Source: Microthyrium microscopicum (lineage: Eukaryota). Taken from it: a stretch of DNA of 64,000 nt. Of this stretch, positions 797 through 15,258 are shown piece by piece. Every line of letters starts with the position of its first letter. Position 1 is the stretch's first letter. Made by a program: the position numbers and the translations under genes. Where the stretch lies: contig MU004231.1 in assembly GCA_010405405.1 (NCBI GenBank), positions 4,266,884-4,330,883 on the forward strand, written 5' to 3'. A model generated the notes under the pieces. That model did not search any database. It was not told the origin of the DNA and saw only the letters and a list, made by a program, of their open reading frames with translations.

Positions 797-3178
797 ATGG
801 AAAACAGATCAACCGAGAATCCCAGCGTTTTGGGTACGACTTCACAGCACGATCAGATCGATCGGACAGACAATGCGCCTTCAAACGCCGACGCTCAACC
901 ACCAGTCCCAGGAACACAAAATGAACCGTCTCTAGGATCTACTCCGTCCAGAGCGCCTAGGCCGATCTCTCCCGCCAATCCTGCAATATCTGGCTCTTCC
1001 GCCATCCCCGCCTCATCATCCAGAGCTCCGTCCACGCCTACACAACTCACACCACCAAGCATAGAAACAACAAGGCCCACATCTCCACGGAGATCGCCGC
1101 CTGGACTGGGTCGCAAACGGACAAATAGTCCACCACAAGATGCAGGTAGTAGTCGCCCAAGTTTGCGAGCGAGCGGACGGCAATCAAGCATTCGCATCCG
1201 TAGGTCTGCGCAGAACGTGCCTACCATTGGCGCAACACAAACGGGGCCATCGACAGGCACGGCCTTGAATTCTGTGCAGGAGCCTTCGGAGGACACGACT
1301 GGGAGGAGAAGGAGTACGTCGGATCCATCGCGAGGAGATCCTTCGCGGGGAGGACTTTTGCCTGGGTCTTCACCATTGCGAATGAGTAGATCAAGTGCTG
1401 TGCTAGATTCCAGAATGCCAGCGGTACAGGAAGAATTATCTGCACAGGGATCTCGTTCGGCGCGTCAGGATGGGCCGGAGTATGAGGGGATGACACGAAC
1501 TGATATACACGACTTTGAGGGCAGTGGCTCAGGCAGCATGCCGTCGGATCTAGGGGATGAGTATCGATCCGATCTGGTTGATGTTCTGGATACCATTGGT
1601 ATTTGGGTTCTTATCCGTAAAGAAAAGCCGTTGCTAACTTGGTGCTCGTAGATCCTGAAGTTTCTACGCTCACGACCCTTACGAACCTCCAGAATTCGCT
1701 ATTTGTTCCTGATTTAGGACGATTTCTCTCGCGCCGGCCTGTATATACGTTGACACCGACACCCACAAGAACGTCGACGTTTCCTGCACCTGCAAAACCA
1801 TCTCCTCCTATAGCGGAAGCTCCTACAGACATTGAGCCTGAGCCTGAGGACAGACGGACTCTTCAGCGCACTTCAACGATCGATTCGACGCTGAGCGAAT
1901 CTCGATATGCTGTGTTACCGCATGGGAGAGATTTGGCTGGCTGGTCGCGAATAGAAAAAGACGAAGTTAATGACCACGTCAGACACATGCTACACTCAAG
2001 ACGCAGTAAATTCAAACGAGGCATGAGGGGTTTTGGACAATATGTAAAAAAGCGTGAGCAAATTGCCCAAGTATAACTCTCTAGAGACAATCGGACTGAC
2101 TTTAGTAGCCCTCGGATTCTTCGTCACTTTGTACGCAGTATTAATTACACTTTTTGGTCTGGCTTGGGTATTGTTCTTGATCGGTACGTCTCACACTCAC
2201 ATTATGCCACCTTCTCGCGCCGTCACGTATTAATGTCCCCCAGGCTGGGTCAACGTCGGTGGGAAACAACTTTACGTGATCAATATCATTGACAACATCC
2301 TTGTCGCCCTCTTCGCTATAATGGGCGATGGCCTCGCCCCCTTTCGCGCTTGGGATACCTACAATATGATTCCCATCGTGCACTACCACCGCAAAACATG
2401 GAAACTGCGCAAAAAGGCCGCCCTTCCAAAACTCAGCAACAAAAACGACCTGCCTGAACTTCGCGAAGAAGAAGTCGGCTATGAAGAGAAGAAAACTGGC
2501 GACTTTGTCGTCCTCTCTGACGCTGAACAAGCGACACTCACTAAACATCAAGATCGCTTTTCGAGGTCCCATACCTTTTATATCCCGCACGAAACGGAGA
2601 CACATTTTGCGTTTCCTATCAGCTTTACAATTGCTATCCAGGTACTACTGGATTGTCACTCCCTGCTCCAGATTGCGCTGGGTACCTGTACATGGGCAAT
2701 AAACTACCATGTGCGCCCCTTTGCGCTGACAACAGTCATCCTGTGCTGTAGTATTACGTGTAATATTACCGCAGGCATAATGATCAGTATTGGAGATCAC
2801 AAGACACGCAAGAAGGACGTATTGGAGCGCATGGACCGCCAGGAGTTGACGGATAAGGCGATCCAAAAAGTTGAGAGGAGACGCGAACGCGAAAGACTGC
2901 AGCAGGAAGAGCTCGATGAGGCGGTCAGAGCGGCCGCGAGAGGCGAGAGCGGGTCACAGATCCAGTTGCATGATGTGAGGAAGTCGGAAAGTCAGACGAG
3001 CAGGATTTTTGGTTCGTTGAAGTTGAGTCGGAGTCGCGGGAGTGATCGGTCGGGCGGTAGGACGCCGCGGCAGAGTCTGCAGATCAAGCGTGAGGAGGGT
3101 CAAGCGACGGAATCTGTGCCTAAAGAGAGAACGGACGACGGAGAGGCGGCGAGGGTAGCTGTTGGCGGCTCGCGGTGA
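797..3178 (+). CDS. DUF2985-like integral membrane protein with long S/P/R-rich N-terminus (4 exons)
   Basis: ORFs join through GT-AG introns 1599-1651, 2054-2108 and 2184-2243. The joins give ...LDTIDPEVSTLTTLTNLQNSLFVP..., ...HVRHMLHSRRSKFKR..., PLGFFVTLYAVLITLFGLAWVLFLIGW and DNILVALFAIMGDGLAPFRAWDTY, which I recognise as a conserved fungal membrane protein family. Confidence 0.75.
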
Positions 3179-3905: not shown

Positions 3906-5728
3906 ATGAGTGTCGTTGCAGCGAAACGGCCTTTGGCTGTGTCAATGTGTGGCGGCTTGCTGGGAAATGCTCGAGCGACGTCACAGCGCGAGATAGTGAG
4001 ATCAGCCAGAAACTTTTCTGGTGGAGAAGTAAATTCACAAAAAGACGGTATGTTGAATTTGAGGAAAAGAGTGATTATCACAACAAGCTAATATCTCCAA
4101 ATAGATCGCGAAAAGGTAGTAGTTCTAGGATCTGGTAAGTGCCCCTTTCATCGCGCTATCCGCCATAAGGCTGAAACAGACGACAAGGCTGGGCTGGCTA
4201 CACCTTCGCCCGCCGTCTCAACCCGAAAAAATACAACGCCGTCATTGTCTCTCCGCGCTCCTACTTTGTCTTCACTCCACTGCTAGCATCCACCAGTGTC
4301 GGCACACTCGAATTCCGCACCGCCCTCGAACCTATCCGCAACAAACGAACCCACGCCGACTTCATTCAAGGATGGGCTGACAGCGTCGATTTTTTCAACA
4401 AGCGCATCTCCATCGAGGAAGCCGTCGATGATCCGCGTCTCGGCCTCGCGCCTACTGGTCGCCGACACGTTGAGTTGTCGACAGGCGAGCATGTGACGCG
4501 AAGAAAGGGCAAGACGTTCAACCTTGATTACGACAAGCTTATCATTACCGTTGGCTGCTACAGCCAGACGTTCAGCATCCCTGGTGTGCGCGAGCACGCC
4601 CTCTTCCTTAAAGACGTTGGTGATGCGCGTCGGATCCGCAAGCGTATTCTGGCATGTTTTGAGAACGCCGCGTTGCCGACGACAAGCGATGCAATGAAGA
4701 AACATTTCCTCAATTTTGCGGTCGTTGGTGGTGGACCGACGGGAATTGAGTTTGCGGCAGAGTTGCACGACTTTATCACAGAAGATCTGGCGAAGGTGTA
4801 TAAGAATGAGGTCGGATTTGCGAAGATCACGGTTTATGATGTGGCGCCGACGGTGTTGCCGATGTTTGATGAGGAGTTGGGCAAGTATGCGATGAAACAG
4901 TTTGCGAGAGAGGGCATTGAGATTAAGACGTCGCATCATATCAAGAGTTTGAGGAAGGGATTGCCTGACTCGGAGAATTCGCAGTTTGATCCGAAAGATG
5001 AGCAGTATTGTATGACGCTGGATGTCCAGGAGGAGGGGCAGATTGGTGCGGGTATGGTGGTTTGGAGTACGGGATTGATGGAGAATCCCTTTGTCAAGAA
5101 TGGGCTTGGAAGCTCTCAGTTGATCAAAACTACGGATGCGCGGCTGCAGAACATTAGTGAGGATCAGGCCGTTGACTCGGATTGGATTGCCAGGAGGGAC
5201 AAAAAGACTGGCAGCTTAATCACAGACAGCCATCTACGACTGGTCATGGAGCCTAAAGAGCAAGGAGATAAGGGGATCACGGCCACTTTGACAGTAAGGC
5301 ACAGACTATCAATGTGTTTCTTGTTTGCTAATGGTTTATAGGATGTTTTCGCGCTGGGTGACTGTGCAATCATCAAAGACACCGCCTATCCAGCAACGGC
5401 ACAAGTCGCTTCTCAAAAGGCAGACTGGCTCGCCAAAGAGCTCAACAAAGGAATCAACGGTCAAGGATTCCGCTTCAACAATCTGGGTGTCATGGCGTAT
5501 CTGGGTAACTGGAATGCGATTGTGCAATTGGAAACTGGCAAAGTCTCTGGTCGAACCGCATGGTTTCTATGGCGCGGAGCATACCTTACGAAATCAGTCA
5601 GCTGGAGGAACAAGGTAGGCTATGCCCTCGGCCTGTTCATTATCATGTTTTAACACGTTTTCTAGATTTTGATACCTATGTATTGGTTCATAAACTGGGC
5701 TTTTGGTCGAGATGTTTCACGATTCTGA
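3906..5728 (+). CDS. Type II (alternative) NADH:ubiquinone oxidoreductase / pyridine nucleotide-disulfide oxidoreductase, mitochondrial
   Basis: The spliced product has an R/S-rich presequence, VVVLGSGWAG (FAD), FTPLLASTSVGTLEFR, VVGGGPTGIEFAAE (NAD), DVFALGDC, PATAQVA and C-terminal FGRDVSRF. Introns are near 4048-4104, 4135-4187, 5294-5341 and 5615-5665. Confidence 0.88.
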
Positions 5729-6239: not shown

Positions 6240-7895
6240 TTAGATCGCCGTTGCGAAACCTGTGATCTTGTGAATGCCATCAAATCGCTTCGATCCGCAG
6301 CTTTCTTGCTCCAGATGTTCGAACAGCGAGGGTATAGTTTGGAAACTTTCAGTGCAGGTCTGCTTGGGACAATGGTGCAACTCTTTACTGTGGGTTGCTG
6401 AATTGAGATGCTTTCCGAGCAAGTATGGTGTCTTGAAGGGCCAGTGGCACAGGAAGCATTGCCATGTATATCCATTCCAAGAACGATTAGGTAGTTCATA
6501 CAGTGCCGGATGAGTTGGACTTTCAGTCGTTTCGTTGTGACTCTTTTGCTGACAATTATCCTTTAGCAGCTCCAGATCAATCGCAGACACTGCTGCGAGT
6601 TCTGTTTGTACAGATTTTGGCGCATCAACTGGGCTTTCAAGCGTGACAACGACCTCAGCTGCCTCCGTGGCCACGACAGAAGCAGTGGTCTCATTGTCGC
6701 AAGAAACAAATTCGTCTTCGCTTGATTCTGTTTCTAAGAATTTGTCCTCAATACTTTCCTCCTCATGAGACTTGCTACATGTTGCTAAGAGAGCAGTCGC
6801 TGGAGGCGAATGAACTTCATCCTTCCCATCGACTTCGGTGAGACTCGCGAGTCGAGCATAGTCGGCCAGCCGAGGCTCATCGTCTGATACTTTGTTGTGG
6901 GATGGGCTCGTGGTTATTGCATTGCATGCCTCCTCAACACTAGAAGCATCGGGTGCCTTCTGCTTGAAAAAAGGCATTGATTGCCATCCGTTGCTGCTCA
7001 TCGGCTTGGTGTTTCGTGAGTAGTCGGCCAAGCGCAACTCTTCGGTTGATAGTCTTTTATGGCGCTCAATGGCGATGATGTTGTACATCATATCCATGCA
7101 GTCAATCAAACCCGGTACTTTCTCCTTGAGAGAGTCCAGTAGCTCTGCTGTGCTAGCAGTAGTTGGCGTACAGCCTCTTGCATAATCAGCGAGTCGGAGC
7201 TCCTCTAATGACTGCGTGTTGTAATGCGTATTTGAGGTGATTGTACAGAGAAGTTCCTCTGAGGACGTGAATCCCGTTACATCTGGCCCGAAGAAATCTT
7301 TCTTTAGTTCTGCCTGGTCTTTGGTTTGTTGTCCGGGAAGAATATGAGCAAGTGGTGTTCTTCCCTTGTTGCCTGTCGCAGGAGCTACGATGAGACCAAG
7401 CGACTCCTGGGATCCTCCATGGTTCGTATCGATGTGTGTTTGACACTTGTAAGTCGGAGTGCGGTGGCCCAAGGCGTCCATGTGCTGATTCCGTCCAGTC
7501 TCTGTGGTAAAGAACCTAGGGCAAGTTTCGCATCCGAAAGTCGGCTTGTGATGATATAACGCATCCATGTGCTGAACACAGCCTTGCATAGTTGTAAATT
7601 TGCGATCACATAGGTCGCATTCGAATTGAGGTTCTCGGTGCCCAAACTGATCCATATGCTCTTCGCACGAGCTCTCCTTGGAATAGGTCTTAATACACGT
7701 ATCACAGTCGTATCCTTCGTCCCAGTGGCCAAGGGACTCCATATGGTCATTGCATGACTGTTGAGTAGCAAAGACTTTGTTGCAAAAATCGCATTCGTAC
7801 TCTGGATCCCAGTGATCCAGAGCATTCATGTGCTGTGCACTGGCTTGATAAGAGCCAAATGTTCTGTCGCAGGAATCGCAGTTAAAGTAAGCCAT
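6240..7895 (-). CDS. Multi-C2H2 zinc-finger protein with central GLEBS-like tandem repeats
   Basis: Intronless 551-aa ORF with five N-terminal CxxC..F...HM...H fingers and two C-terminal fingers (CFLC...HLNSATH, HCPKQTC...HLEQESCG). The centre carries three (S/D)xEE(L/P)RLADY-type repeats. Confidence 0.8.
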   Translation of the reverse strand: MAYFNCDSCDRTFGSYQASAQHMNALDHWDPEYECDFCNKVFATQQSCNDHMESLGHWDEGYDCDTCIKTYSKESSCEEHMDQFGHREPQFECDLCDRKFTTMQGCVQHMDALYHHKPTFGCETCPRFFTTETGRNQHMDALGHRTPTYKCQTHIDTNHGGSQESLGLIVAPATGNKGRTPLAHILPGQQTKDQAELKKDFFGPDVTGFTSSEELLCTITSNTHYNTQSLEELRLADYARGCTPTTASTAELLDSLKEKVPGLIDCMDMMYNIIAIERHKRLSTEELRLADYSRNTKPMSSNGWQSMPFFKQKAPDASSVEEACNAITTSPSHNKVSDDEPRLADYARLASLTEVDGKDEVHSPPATALLATCSKSHEEESIEDKFLETESSEDEFVSCDNETTASVVATEAAEVVVTLESPVDAPKSVQTELAAVSAIDLELLKDNCQQKSHNETTESPTHPALYELPNRSWNGYTWQCFLCHWPFKTPYLLGKHLNSATHSKELHHCPKQTCTESFQTIPSLFEHLEQESCGSKRFDGIHKITGFATAI

Positions 7896-8689: not shown

Positions 8690-10172
8690 TTATTGGGCCT
8701 TGGCAGTCGCCTTGCCGGCGTACATATGGTTGAAAGTTCTGCCTATAATGACTCTTCGAATCTCACTCGTCCCTGCTCCTATCTCATATAGCTTTGCATC
8801 TCGAAGTAAACGGCCTGCTGCAACTTCGTTGACGTAGCCTGTGCCTCCTAGGCATTGTATGGCATCTAATGCACACTTCGTCGCATTCTCCGCTGCATAT
8901 AATATGGCGGCAGCACAATCTTGGCTCTTGACCGATGGATCTCTGGAGTCAGACTCGAGGTTTTCTGCCGTAGGAAATAAGGAGTGCGGTGTCAAGAAGT
9001 GAGCTGGTGTTCCGTTGTCAACGGCGGCAGCAATAGTATACGTCAACGAGGATGCAGTGAGGTATGCCGTATACATATCAGCGAGCTTGCCCTGAAGCAA
9101 CTGATTGAAAGCGATTGGTGTGCCAAATTGCTTTCGGGTGTGAGTGTATGGTAGCGAGATGTCCATACAGGCGCGCATTATGCCTAGCGGTCCAGCGCTA
9201 AGGACAAGTCGTTCGAGATCAAGACCAGACATTAACACTTTGACGCCACGATTTAGCTGTCCTAGTACATTTTCTTTCGGGACAAACACGTTGTCGAAGA
9301 CTAGCTCTCCAGTGTTGCTGCCTCGCATGCCTAGCTTGTCCAGTTTTTGGGCCACGGAAAATCCTTTGGCTACTTTTCCAGAGTCGTCTTTAGTTTCAAC
9401 AATGAAGGCGGTCATACCCTTGGAACCCGCTTTCGGGTCTGTTTTGGCGTATACCACGATGTAGTTGGCATCAGGTCCGTTTGTGATCCACATCTTTGAT
9501 CCATTCAGAATATAGCCACCGTCTACCTCTTTTGCTGTAGTTGTCATGCTTACGACGTCTGATCCAGCTCCGTGCTCAGACATTGCTAGTGCCCCAACAG
9601 CGGTGCCGCTCACCAGACCTGGTAAATATTTCTCAGTTTGTTGCGTTGTCCCATGAAGTCGTATTTGGTTGACGCAAAGTTGTGAATGAGCAGCATATGA
9701 CAATGCGATTGAGGCTGTGGAGTGTCAGCAGCGAACCGAGATTGATGTCCATTTACCTACCAGATGCTCGACTGAGTTCTTCCATGACCACGCAGTGAGC
9801 TTGATATCCCATGGCAAGTCCACCATGATCTTCTTCCACCGTTATACCAAGGAATCCTGCCTCTCCCAGCTTCTGCCACATCTCTGGTGGAAACTCATTC
9901 TCGCGATCAACTTTGGCGGCAAATTCTTCAGTTATTTCTCTTCCTGAATAAGTTTAGTGAGATCACAACAGCAAACTCAGAAAGTGCCTACGTGTAAACT
10001 CTTGAACTCTGTCCCTCAATTCTGTCAGATCTTCCTGCGTTGGAGGGACAAAGCCATTTGGATGCTTCGACGATGCGGCTCGGACAATCGTTCTAGGTCC
10101 GAATGAAGCGCGTTGTCGACCCAGTTGCCGTGACGCCCGAACTGCTATACGCGACAAAACAGGGGACACCAT
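8690..10172 (-). CDS. ivdA: Isovaleryl-CoA dehydrogenase, mitochondrial
   Basis: Acyl-CoA dehydrogenase motifs [43 protein letters not shown] and [19 protein letters not shown], plus an R-rich presequence. Introns are near 9944-9991 and 9715-9760. Confidence 0.93.
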
Positions 10173-10402
10173 GATGCTAGAAGAGGAATCGCAGAAATAA
10201 TGAAGCAAAATACAATTGGAAAGCAGGATGGTGCTGTGATGCTGTTGGGAGGCCAATGTCGCAATGTGACACCAGCCTTCGGTTATTCGCGGCTCACGAT
10301 CAATGCCTCCTTGCGACGTCAGCGGTACATCGACCACGACTTCCCACGAGTCTCTGTTCTTCTAGCTTTTGTTCTTCTTTGATTCCGACCACAGTTTGAG
10401 CA
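10173..10402. promoter_or_regulatory. Probable bidirectional promoter shared by ivdA and mccB
   Basis: Only 230 bp separate the divergent start codons of two consecutive leucine-catabolism enzymes. Confidence 0.6.
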
Positions 10403-12176
10403 ATGGAGTTATCGAGATCTTTGTTTGCGAGTTCGATAACACGGGCTGCGTGGAGGCGCGGCTGGCGAACGCGACACTTCCGTGGAATCGCGACACATAC
10501 ACACTCATTCCACGCGAACCAGATCTCAGTAATACGGTCAAAAGCGGATCCATCCTCGGCAGAGTTTAAAGAAAATGTGCAGCAAATGAACGAGGTTCTG
10601 GAGAGAATAAGAGATCTGCAGGCAAGAGCTAGACAAGGTGGAAATGCGAAGGCGAGAGAGAAGCACGTAGCCAGGGGGAAGATGCTACCACGAGAGTATG
10701 ATTTGCTATTGCACACGTTCAATCCCTTGACTGACGCGTCTTCTCTCTTTTAGCCGCATAACAGCCTTAATAGACCCTTCAACCTCTTTTCTCGAGCTCT
10801 CCTCTCTAGCTGGCCACGAGCTCTATGGCGAAGACATTCCATCAGGCGGCATAATCACAGGAGTTGGCACTGTATCAGGCGTGACATGTGTGATTGTTGC
10901 CAACGACGCGACTGTCAAAGGTGGAACTTACTATCCCATAACCGTCAAGAAACATCTTCGAGCACAAGAAATCGCACAACAAAATCGACTTCCATGTATA
11001 TACCTGGTGGACTCTGGCGGTGCCAATCTGCCACACCAGAAGGATGTCTTCCCAGGTAGAGACCATTTCGGCCGCATATTCTACAACCAGGCTCGCATGA
11101 GTGGTGCAGGCATACCTCAAATAAGTGTTGTTATGGGTCCCTGTACGGCCGGCGGTGCATATGTGCCTAGTATGAGCGACGAAAGTATCATCGTCAATGA
11201 GCAAGGCCATATCTTTTTGGCCGGGCCACCACTTGTCAAAGCTGCCACTGGTGAAGAAGTGACTGCGGAAGAGCTTGGAGGAGGCAAAATGCATTCGACT
11301 GAATCAGGTGTCACCGACTACCTTGCTGTTGACGACGCGCATGCTCTTGTTCTTGCACGGCGGTGTATAAGTAATCTCAACTGGCCCCAAGCACAAGCGG
11401 TTGGATATCCGTCAGGAGTCTCAATATCTGAACAAAGCAAACCCTGGCAAGATCCACTATATGATCCGGCGGAACTCAATGGCATCGTAGGCACCAACCT
11501 ACGGAAGCAAGTCGATGCCCATGAGATTATTGCCCGTATCGTCGATGGCAGCGAATTCGCAGAGTTCAAGCCCGAATTCGGTCCAACACTAGTCACTGGC
11601 TTCGCTCGTGTATTTGGTCAACAAGTTGGAATTTTAGCGTCCAACGGTATTCTTCTTAGCCCTGCGGCGCTGAAAGGCGCTCACTTCATCGAGCTCTGTA
11701 CGAAGAGACATGTGCCACTCCTCTTCTTGCAAAACATATCCGGTTTCATGGTCGGTCGTGATGCAGAAGCAGGCGGTATAGCCAAAAATGGTGCCAAACT
11801 AGTGACAGCTGTTGCATGCGCTGCTGTGCCAAAATTGACCGTCGTTTTTGGCGCGTCTTATGGCGCAGGGAACTACGGCATGTGTGGCAGAGCATACTCC
11901 CCACGATTTCTTTGGACGTGGCCCAACGCAAAGACTGGTGTAATGGGTGCTGAGCAGCTTGCTGGCGTTATGGCCGCGGTTGGCAAGGGATCCGATGATG
12001 GATTGAAAGAGAGGATAGAGAAAGAAACCGATTCTGTCTTTGGTAGCGCTAGGTTATGGGACGATGGCATTATTGAGCCGGCTTTGACAAGAGATTATGT
12101 TGGCCTTGGGCTTCGAGCTGCGTTGGGAGGCTGGACAGAGAAGGAGGACACGACCTTCGGTGTCTTTAGGATGTAA
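10403..12176 (+). CDS. mccB: 3-methylcrotonyl-CoA carboxylase beta (carboxyltransferase) subunit
   Basis: Motifs [13 protein letters not shown] (across intron 10697-10753), [57 protein letters not shown] and C-terminal FGVFRM. Confidence 0.93.
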
Positions 12177-12722: not shown

Positions 12723-15258
12723 CTATACCGAACCATTTTCTTTTGTCTCATCTTTGTTTTCGAACTGCTGAAACGTTGGACTTTTGTTGATCTCCTCAAA
12801 ATCGTCGTCATTTCCGCTCTTCTTGTCGTTGTCTTTCTCGCCAGACTCTTCGACTGGAGCTGTGGTTTCGGGACCTGATTCCGCTAGGCTCTTTGCCATG
12901 GAAAGTTTGTTCACCTTCGTTTCAAGCATTTCAGCGGCCCATTCGCGGACCTCCTTGACGGCTTTCCACGGATCTTTGCGAGGAATGAGGAAATTTTGGA
13001 CTTCTGCTGGAGAGAAAGTATCCTCCTTGACTTCTTCGACAAATTGCTCGGCCAAGTCACGAAGCTCATCCTTGCTGAAATGAGTATGTTTTTTGGTCAA
13101 CAGCGGCTTCAATAACTCTTTTGTCTCTTGATCGATCGCCCGCTTTCCGCCAAATCCTGTGAGCTTAGAAATAGGATTGCCATTTGGCTCGTTGGCTTTC
13201 GGAATATGCCCGTTGCCATCGACATCACCGTTTGCTTTCTTGGACTCTTTGGCTTCGTTGTCGTACATGCGGACGAATATTTCTCTGATCTGGTGCTTTG
13301 TAGCCAAGGTGAATCGTATCTGCATATCTACTCGACCTGGACGAATCAAAGCATCGTCTAATCTCTCAGGGAAGTTTGTCGTCATTACTAGCACACGACC
13401 TTCATGGCTCCTATTGAACTATTAGTCATCACTCAGCGATGTCTAGAAAGAGAACCTACGCTACGCCATCAATGGCATTGAGCAGTCCTGAGAGCGAGAT
13501 ACCATTAGAAGCTGGAGGCTCTTCAGGTCCGCTTGTCTTTCCCCTTCGTGGACGAATCATTTTATCTGCCGGAGCACCTGGTCTCTTCAGTCCGGCAGAA
13601 TCAATATCTTCGAGCAGGACCTGTGAAAGGAAAGTTAGCCAACAAACTACCTGAAGATTTCCAAGAACTTACGATGCATCTTCGAGGTAGACTGTTAAAC
13701 AGTGCGGTCAAGTCGGTTTCAGTCAAGTTGGGATCCAACAAGCTGATGAGATAGACCTCCAGGCCAAATAATCCAGCCAAAGCAAAGCTGAGACTAGACT
13801 TCCCTGTGCCGGGTGGGCCATGAAATAGGTAGCCTCTACGATATGGTATCCCTCGTCGAGCATACCATCGTCTTGTAGTAGGCAGTAGATACTCGTGTAC
13901 ATCTGCAATGAGCTCTGCTTTTCGGTTATCTGCAAGTACCACTGTCTCTACAGGCCGGCTTGGACGCTCAAGTGCTCGAGCCCAAGCCCCTTGTCGAGCT
14001 CGTTCTCGTTGTGCTGGACGACGGATAACCGTCAACAAGGTTTGATTTTCAGCTGCCCATTCTTTGATCTCGCTAAGAAGATCTTTGATGGGTTGTGTCT
14101 TCCATCCGATTGTCTTGAAGGTGACATGCTCCTCCTCGGTTTGCCTATCCCATGGAGAGCTGCATTAGTTAGTTTGGATGATGACATATGAGAAATAGAC
14201 GTACCGTGCGCCTCGTTCGCGACGACCGCGTTCGAAGACGTAAAGTCGCCAATTGCGGACAAAATAGTAGGTGCCATAGTAAGGCTCGTAGTTCGGTGGT
14301 AATTTTGTCATACGGCCTGTGTGAAAAAGCTCTTGAGTGAAAAGATTCTCGTCCAATTGATCTTCGTCGTCATCACCAAGGGCTTTAGATTTGGCTTTCA
14401 GAGTTCGTGCACTGCAACGTGATTGTCAGTAAAGAGGATAAAACATATGGCTTCATCTGTGTATCTCGTAACCGTCGACAAGAATGAATGGCGCGCTCCA
14501 ATCAGCTCTTTGGCCAATGACCGCTACCTGTTGTTATTCGATACTTTACTTTCCATCGGATACGTAGATGTAGCTGTGAAATATCGAGCACGATGGAAAG
14601 TAGAGTGTATGCTCTATATAAGGAGCGGTGGTAGACATTACACTCGATGAGAGCGTGCCATTCATTTCGTCGACCCGTTGTCTCGTAGTTGAGCATGAAA
14701 GTATGACCTACGTTCTCCCTACTTGTTCTTTGGAGATCCACTTCAGGATATCTTCAAACATGTCATCATATTCCAGAATGTGAATCGATGAGATGCCATA
14801 ATCCTGAACCAATGACCAGAAACGCCGGCCTAGGAATCGGACTGCCGTTGCAAAAGTCACCAGAATGAAGCCAGCAGAGACGAAGATGCCTATATCGAAG
14901 CCAAATGCCTGAAGAATGAATCTTGATATGACACTATATCCTGGAATGAAAGCCTCCAGCATGTTGGGGGCTAGAATTCGTCAGTATAACATTACGATCA
15001 GAATTGTAACGCTTGGAAAAGACCATTTGGCCTTTTTGCGGTGCAATCATAAACCACTTCATGGAAACCATAGCACCCGATCAGTAACGCATGCTATGGC
15101 AGCCATCGAATGTGCCGAAAGTCGCTAGAGTCTGGAGCATTTCAAATGGTAGGCTTACCAAAGTCCAATGGTGCCTGTCCTGCTCCATCATTGCCCAGTG
15201 TTCTAGCAGTATCTAGCAGAGGTGACTGCTGACCCCGAAAACGGAATTTACCACTCAT
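12723..15258 (-). CDS. BCS1-like mitochondrial AAA ATPase
   Basis: N-terminal TM (LEAFIPGYS...GFDIG), BCS1_N region, WYARRGIPYRRGYLFHGPPGTGKSS (Walker A), VLLEDID (Walker B), ISLSGLLNAIDGVA and MTTNFPERLDDALIRPGRVD. Introns are about 14972-15158, 14413-14711, 13622-13671 and 13411-13459. Exon 1 is inferred from splice phase. Confidence 0.88.

Follow-up and report, generated by a model that had tools for sequence, protein, structure and literature searches.

We report that an open reading frame (ORF) in a 64,000-nucleotide (nt) stretch of Microthyrium microscopicum DNA (assembly GCA_010405405.1, contig MU004231.1, positions 4,266,884 to 4,330,883; hereafter the window, with coordinates counted from its first letter) encodes a zinc-finger protein carrying, at its centre, three tandem repeats related to the Gle2-binding sequence (GLEBS) of Nup98-type nucleoporins. 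The ORF, 6240-7895 on the minus strand, runs uninterrupted from ATG to stop and specifies a protein of 551 amino acids (aa). Profile searches in both directions show the three central repeats to be homologous to the nucleoporin GLEBS. The most likely reading of these sequence comparisons is that the protein is a multivalent binder of Gle2/Rae1, to which we give about as much credence as doubt.

The three stretches are found where an initial annotation of the window had placed them, in steps of 54 aa or 162 nt (Table 1), and the same 162-nt spacing was independently found by a DNA repeat finder (family D3, 6860/7022). No gaps are needed to align the 54-aa units; nine columns are the same in all three (I, S, E, R, L, A, D, Y and R), and units 2 and 3 are 28% and 31% identical to unit 1. 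The eight-residue core of repeats 1 and 2, EELRLADY, is identical to that of fungal nucleoporins, the acidic pair reads EE except in copy 3, where it is DE, and the residues kept in the repeats are those most conserved among nucleoporins. Repeat 3, which had been described as decayed, is indeed the most altered of the three, with D-E at the EE position, proline in place of leucine, and the lowest profile score (10.0 bits).

The Pfam family PF21240 (Nup98_GLEBS) matches the whole protein at 17.9 bits over aa 219-238, and repeat 1 taken alone at 21.7 bits (E 2e-4), so that the protein stays under the curated cut-off of 27 bits. For calibration, ten true fungal Nup98-Nup96 proteins were scored, each with autopeptidase, phenylalanine-glycine (FG) and Nup96 domains (P0175, P0177, P0178, P0185, P0188, P0190, P0197, P0203, P0224, and P0253). 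Nine of these score 17.1-25.0 bits and one gives no match at a threshold of E 0.1. Since none of the ten reaches 27 bits, failure at this value is not diagnostic: the Pfam model under-calls fungal GLEBS motifs and its cut-off is uninformative for fungi.

A profile of the motif region, built from three relatives and the three repeats, was searched against a 5.8-billion-protein collection (longer proteins) and returned 168 matches at E<=1. Among the best 120, which were listed, 78 are FG nucleoporins (Nup98-Nup96, Nup145, SONB) with E values from 2e-12 to 3e-4, and the retrieved nucleoporins carry PF04096, PF13634, and PF12110. The converse profile took as its input nucleoporin sequence alone, namely 74 unique GLEBS segments from the 78 fungal proteins. 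It matches exactly three sites in the 551-aa protein (aa 218-241, 278-293, and 312-347, at 21.5, 15.6, and 10.0 bits), giving a total of 51.7 bits and, for this one sequence, an E value of 3.3e-18. None of 2000 shuffles of the protein reaches 10 bits with this profile (the maximum being 7.5); three of the 149 other listed zinc-finger relatives do so, and all three themselves carry a GLEBS. A six-frame scan of the whole window found no GLEBS site beyond the three. Because the nucleoporin-only profile finds just these sites and no shuffle attains 10 bits, the observation of the initial annotation is confirmed as real and beyond chance. The homology that it proposed to the Nup98-type motif is likewise upheld by the searches in both directions; recognition by a GLEBS profile holds for the nucleoporin-only model and fails at the Pfam cut-off.

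The pattern of conservation among the copies points to selection. The five residues RLADY are identical in all three unit pairs, with identical codons at only 0/5, 1/5, and 2/5 positions, while outside the core any two units have 5-8 of 42 residues in common (12-19% identity). The invariance of RLADY despite near-saturated synonymous change indicates that each copy has been maintained by selection at the protein level. Judged by how few flanking residues are still common, the units are old and diverged.

The repeats share with Nup98, Nup145N, Nup116 and SonB the core S-x-EELRLADY and the acidic pair, and repeat 1 scores within the Pfam range of the fungal nucleoporins. In contrast to Nup98/Nup145N, the M. 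microscopicum protein has three copies rather than one, with the N-terminal arm of the motif eroded and copy 3 bearing DE and P at conserved places. The surrounding protein also differs: it has no GLFG sequence and only four FG dipeptides, as the absence of FG repeats noted initially had implied, and it has neither PF13634 nor PF04096 (Pfam, E<=10) nor a Nup96 part. With no FG domain and no autopeptidase, the host of the repeats is a non-nucleoporin zinc-finger protein, in agreement with the initial annotation.

To find relatives, 1.84 billion representatives were searched exhaustively with HMMER; this gave 15,557 matches at E<=1e-3, the best 150 being listed. All of these 150 but one match just the finger array or the C-terminal module, the exception being P0141, whose match extends through repeat 1; those among them that are named come from Alternaria, Aspergillus, and Apiospora and are annotated as hypothetical proteins. 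A single GLEBS after the fingers is present in three of the other 149 listed matches, P0016, P0102, and P0141 (PF21240 at 27.0, 26.5, and 17.5 bits), of which P0016 additionally matches RanBP1 at 31.2 bits (cut-off 23.2). P0102 (XP_013432392.1, Aureobasidium namibiae) and P0016 (KAH0001396.1, A. melanogenum) exemplify the family, whose members are named hypothetical or C2H2-type domain-containing proteins.

The motif-profile search revealed at least 38 further non-nucleoporin GLEBS carriers, which were scanned with Pfam. Fifteen have C2H2 fingers (four of them also RanBP1), three have RanBP1 only, and 11 the GLEBS only; the rest are a dynamin, an ankyrin protein with a GPIID winged-helix, a BTB protein, and six without any family. 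The named members that combine zinc fingers with a GLEBS come from A. melanogenum, A. namibiae, and A. mustum. A Pfam match to RanBP1 (PF00638) occurs in five of 19 finger-plus-GLEBS proteins, the M. microscopicum protein being counted, and is hence an optional feature; the M. microscopicum protein itself gives no PF00638 match at E<=10. An alignment of 18 finger-plus-GLEBS proteins (A4), consisting of this protein and 17 relatives, is collinear throughout: the fingers are followed by a linker rich in proline, alanine and serine, then by the GLEBS, in many proteins by a RanBP1-like region, and lastly by a C-terminal C2H2 plus C2HC pair. Its 23 invariant columns include finger ligands and the S, E, L, R, and D of the GLEBS. 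Repeat 1 lines up with the family GLEBS, and repeats 2 and 3 together with the acidic tail stand at the position of the relatives' RanBP1. On this alignment, the protein is shown to belong to an undescribed fungal family of the form zinc fingers - GLEBS - (RanBP1) - zinc fingers, found mainly in Aureobasidium.

The likeness to the Aureobasidium proteins covers the finger array, which is of one type in both and up to 48% identical, the linker, the GLEBS, and the C-terminal C2H2 and C2HC. Those relatives have a single near-perfect GLEBS (PF21240 up to 28.9 bits), in contrast to three eroded copies here, and the M. microscopicum protein has an extra finger and no RanBP1 domain. The extra finger is finger 3 (aa 64-86, 7638-7706 on the minus strand), which is without counterpart in the 17 aligned relatives, represents an inserted 29-aa finger unit, and is modelled with a predicted local distance difference test score (pLDDT) of 42-56. 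All 18 related zinc-finger and GLEBS proteins found have one copy of the motif; the multiplication proposed in the initial annotation is thus borne out.

Tandem GLEBS copies were also observed apart from fingers. Eight of the 38 carriers are multi-copy proteins lacking fingers. They include P0152 from the chytrid Zopfochytrium, with three copies and 62 bits, and the ENA protein P0154, with three full copies and 148.7 bits on PF21240, which exemplify GLEBS motifs arrayed two or three times in tandem where no further domain is present. Nucleoporin-type GLEBS motifs were furthermore seen at the ends of unrelated fungal proteins (P0260, P0261, P0267, and P0251), a set made up of a dynamin from Wilcoxina mikolae (C-terminal motif), a NOD-like receptor (NLR)-like protein with ankyrin repeats and a GPIID winged-helix (C-terminal motif), a BTB protein, and one with the UniRef name P-loop containing. 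It seems from these sequences that the GLEBS has been copied out of the nucleoporin repeatedly.

A single public sequencing run (X1), listed as 'RNA? (a guess)', contains the stretch. Its contigs are without six short GT..AG/CT..AC introns of neighbouring genes, and are therefore RNA-derived. A 4606-nt contig spans 5664-9714, and no joint falls within the ORF; RNA-derived sequence thus spans the unspliced ORF, and the gene lies in transcribed DNA. These data bear on whether the ORF is a chance frame or a decaying pseudogene rather than a real gene. No close orthologue was found and the RNA contig carries no strand information, as would be expected of such a frame; however, 551 codons are open, pattern matching finds seven zinc-binding patterns intact across them, the product is collinear from end to end with 17 relatives, RNA-derived contigs cover the ORF, and its base composition is similar to that of the neighbouring genes. 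We consider this explanation hardly credible. An identical 551-aa protein is recorded in NCBI and UniRef, where it is the sole member of its own 90% cluster.

In Pfam, the N-terminal finger array scores 42.4 bits with zf-C2H2_4, 34.9 with zf-C2H2_2, and 28.1 with both jaz and zf-met, and its 87-nt period is also seen as DNA repeat families D1/D2. A search of solved structures with the fingers gave generic DNA-binding C2H2 arrays only (HIC2 at 5.8e-11, ZBTB20, Kaiso, and TFIIIA), and the C-terminal module matched CTCF at 4.5e-5. The nearest solved structures are hence of the DNA type, but the jaz and zf-met families are of the RNA type, and such matches leave DNA and RNA undivided as ligands of the fingers. 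A PDB sequence search with the repeat region returned no match at E<=10, and the ESM Atlas gave no usable feature match for aa 196-365, every structure row having a template modelling score (TM) below 0.5.

The AlphaFold2 model, built on the 18-sequence family alignment, has a mean pLDDT of 50.4 and a predicted TM score (pTM) of 0.22. The N-terminal fingers, except finger 3, reach pLDDT 76-93 and the C-terminal module 68-78, while aa 147-476, including an acidic tail (aa 366-476, 21% D+E by composition), are mostly below 50 with a few low-confidence helices. The repeats are thus probably located in a disordered linker between folded fingers, and their position in a low-pLDDT stretch flanked by folded fingers is the setting typical of short linear motifs, which favours the reading as a Gle2/Rae1 binder. 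Short helices, at aa 230-239 and 263-292, cover the cores of units 1 and 2 in the model. Such helices could mean that the conserved core serves some other purpose (another peptide partner, a degron, or helices that pair with one another), its likeness to the GLEBS reflecting descent only, and function may well drift after capture. Their confidence is low, however (pLDDT 37-60), conservation in the repeats falls on exactly the positions that vary least among nucleoporins, and the relatives retain a near-perfect nucleoporin-like GLEBS beside a Ran-binding domain. A different purpose for the core is, in our estimation, decidedly improbable.

The nucleoporin GLEBS is described as a hairpin of ~57 residues lying on the top face of the Rae1/Gle2 propeller, in which E201/E202 of Nup98 and E154/E155 of Nup116 form bridges to R172/R216 of Rae1 (PMC3783196). 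According to work cited in the same paper, overexpression of the Nup98 GLEBS in HeLa cells mislocalised Rae1 and blocked poly(A) RNA export, with nuclear accumulation of this RNA (PMC3783196). Furthermore, Gle2 and the Nup145N GLEBS of Chaetomium thermophilum, a filamentous ascomycete, are reported to form a stable pair that binds single-stranded RNA (preprint 10.1101/2021.10.26.465790).

By analogy, we propose a soluble zinc-finger protein whose disordered centre would offer three GLEBS copies of the Nup98/Nup145N type. Each copy would dock on a single WD40 propeller of Gle2/Rae1, running over its top face in the manner of the nucleoporin motif, and the acidic pairs EE, EE, and DE would contact conserved arginines through two salt bridges. 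A single molecule could then accommodate up to three Gle2 molecules, bound presumably most firmly by copy 1 and least by copy 3; the flanking fingers would tether this Gle2 cluster to nucleic acid or to a ribonucleoprotein (RNP), and the protein would serve as an adaptor in export or in the handling of RNPs. If present in large amounts, it might instead compete with the pore protein Nup145N for Gle2. In this manner, the protein may gather Gle2/Rae1 away from the pore. The RanBP1 domain of the sister proteins is, as a matter of domain content, an independent sign that the family has a role in nucleocytoplasmic transport; being a second nuclear-transport signature, it makes the family context favour a multivalent Gle2/Rae1 binder. 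No Gle2 or Bub3 gene was found in the 64-kb window.

Several observations weigh against this proposal. Taken alone, neither repeat 2 nor repeat 3 gives a PF21240 match; the N-terminal arm of the ~57-residue nucleoporin motif is poorly kept in all three copies, with I/T-rich remnants only; and repeat 3, with its proline for leucine, attains just 10 bits. No full-length relative is present among the best 150 of the 15,557 matches, and no orthologue with three repeats was found in the 90% cluster or in the homologue searches, among them a word-based search with aa 150-400 that recovered the query alone from 8000 scored candidates. In addition, the 4606-nt contig extends over two neighbouring genes as well and carries no information on strand or expression level. 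Finally, Rae1 also binds the GLEBS of Bub1 according to a review (PMC4695854), so that the sequence leaves the partner unfixed.

Some of these points would also be expected if the repeats were relics, left over from a captured GLEBS and unable by now to bind any WD40 protein, with the fingers alone functional and the centre a mere linker. Repeats 2 and 3 under Pfam detection, the eroded arm and the lack of an orthologue with the triple arrangement fit such an origin, as does the relatives' RanBP1 domain being missing here. Against it stands the identity of the five-residue core in the three copies despite near-saturated synonymous change and flanks that have diverged so widely, which is hard to explain without selection. 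We therefore regard relics as an unlikely explanation.

The choice of partner leads to a further alternative, that the repeats bind Bub3 and not Gle2, in which case the protein would resemble BuGZ as a partner of the spindle-checkpoint propeller, possibly with a role in transcription as for Neurospora BuGZ. In BuGZ/ZNF207, C2H2 fingers occur together with a GLEBS whose EE pair mediates binding to Bub3, and this holds in Neurospora crassa too (PMC9203020); that GLEBS is described as lying in a disordered region, with the EE pair essential to binding (PMC9203020, PMC11917139). Bub3 and Rae1 are moreover related propellers, and GLEBS motifs are reported to be partly cross-reactive between them (PMC4695854). 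BuGZ/ZNF207 and the protein described here both pair C2H2 fingers with a GLEBS that lies in a disordered region; they differ in that BuGZ, by published description, has a single GLEBS, of the Bub3 class, and two fingers at the N terminus, as opposed to 5+2 fingers and three copies of the nucleoporin class, so that neither the number nor the type of fingers is alike. The core of the repeats is identical to the Nup145N core of fungi, and the proteins that the profile matches are nucleoporins. Like the GLEBS of Bub1, BubR1, and Mad3, each repeat is a short acidic-pair motif of the kind that lies on a WD40 propeller; unlike those proteins, ours has no Mad3/BUB1 family in Pfam at E<=10 and no kinase or tetratricopeptide repeat (TPR) context. 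The ELM pattern LIG_GLEBS_BUB3_1, in the form given in PMC11917139, matches nowhere in the protein, although it is a poor discriminator (24 of 78 nucleoporins match it). We regard binding to Bub3 in place of Gle2 as quite unlikely.

BuGZ/ZNF207 also qualifies what can be called new. The initial annotation had held that no protein with this architecture was described; this does not stand, since BuGZ/ZNF207 is a known C2H2 and GLEBS protein (PMC9203020), and the architecture is not unique either, as at least 18 further uncharacterised fungal proteins with zinc fingers and a GLEBS are present in public databases. The remainder of its interpretation survives, namely the homology, the non-nucleoporin setting, the multiplication, and the decay of repeat 3. 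What is new here is a GLEBS of the nucleoporin class, multivalent, in a non-nucleoporin zinc-finger protein, the combination of C2H2 fingers and GLEBS being already known. In the full-text literature, subscription journals excluded, no paper was found that deals with tandem GLEBS motifs or with a nucleoporin-type GLEBS in a fungal finger/RanBP1 protein.

A wider view would be that the Nup98-type GLEBS is a portable module, repeatedly copied from the nucleoporin gene into soluble fungal proteins, with the M. microscopicum protein acting as a trivalent Gle2 scaffold. The recipients would comprise the zinc-finger/RanBP1 proteins, the dynamin, the NLR-like ankyrin protein, the BTB protein, and the two- and three-copy proteins without other domains. 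Clusters of Gle2 and RNA might then be assembled on finger-bound RNPs or chromatin off the pore, constituting an undescribed soluble branch of Gle2/Rae1 function. We put this view forward tentatively, and consider it rather doubtful in its full extent.

The features of the ORF are collected in Table 1.

Table 1. Coordinates of the GLEBS-bearing zinc-finger gene and its parts within the window.
Feature	Coordinates	Strand	Description
Whole ORF	6240..7895	-	551 aa, stop codon included; single exon
Five C2H2 fingers, N-terminal	7464..7880	-	aa 6-28, 35-57, 64-86, 93-116, 122-144; period 29 aa / 87 nt
Central region	6468..7457	-	aa 147-476; predicted disordered; three repeat units and acidic tail
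Repeat unit 1	7125..7286	-	aa 204-257; GLEBS core aa 216-241 = 7173-7250; best kept, ..SLEELRLADY..G
Repeat unit 2	6963..7124	-	aa 258-311; GLEBS core aa 270-295 = 7011-7088; ..STEELRLADY..
Repeat unit 3	6801..6962	-	aa 312-365; GLEBS core aa 324-349 = 6849-6926; most decayed, ..SDDEPRLADY..
C-terminal zinc module	6297..6458	-	C2H2 aa 480-502 and C2HC aa 509-533; common to Aureobasidium relatives

Among the neighbouring genes, an acyl-CoA dehydrogenase gene of the isovaleryl-CoA type (8690-10210, minus strand) has two short introns, 9714-9761 and 9942-9991, and a carboxyl-transferase gene resembling the methylcrotonoyl-CoA carboxylase beta subunit (10358-12176, plus strand; PF01039 at 460.9 bits) has one, 10695-10754; the two form a divergent leucine-catabolism pair, all three introns of which are spliced in the RNA contigs. 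Among the fused or mis-modelled isovaleryl-CoA dehydrogenases to which a homologue search was confined, the highest fungal identities were 71% (Mytilinidion) and 65-69% (Pleosporales), which hints weakly at a Dothideomycete. At 12723-14164 on the minus strand, two adjoining frames match the BCS1 N-terminal domain and a BCS1-like AAA lid domain, and represent a gene for a BCS1-type mitochondrial AAA chaperone that is split by at least one intron. On the other side, a pyridine-nucleotide-disulphide oxidoreductase gene resembling alternative NADH dehydrogenases (4175-5341, plus strand) has an intron, 5293-5342, that is spliced in the RNA, and a gene for a DUF2985 protein is found at 2234-3178 on the plus strand.

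The role of Gle2/Rae1 in RNA export is still poorly defined, and most work on the protein treats it as a factor attached to the pore. Should the motifs prove unable to bind Gle2, the present case would merely be a curious relic in a lineage-specific zinc-finger protein. If they do bind it, a natural soluble protein with three docking motifs would offer a direct handle on the work of Gle2 off the pore, and the sister family, which adds a Ran-binding domain, would provide the same handle. The case also illustrates how a short linear motif may be copied from a nucleoporin and then multiplied, and such proteins would allow one to test whether cells tune export through competition for Gle2.

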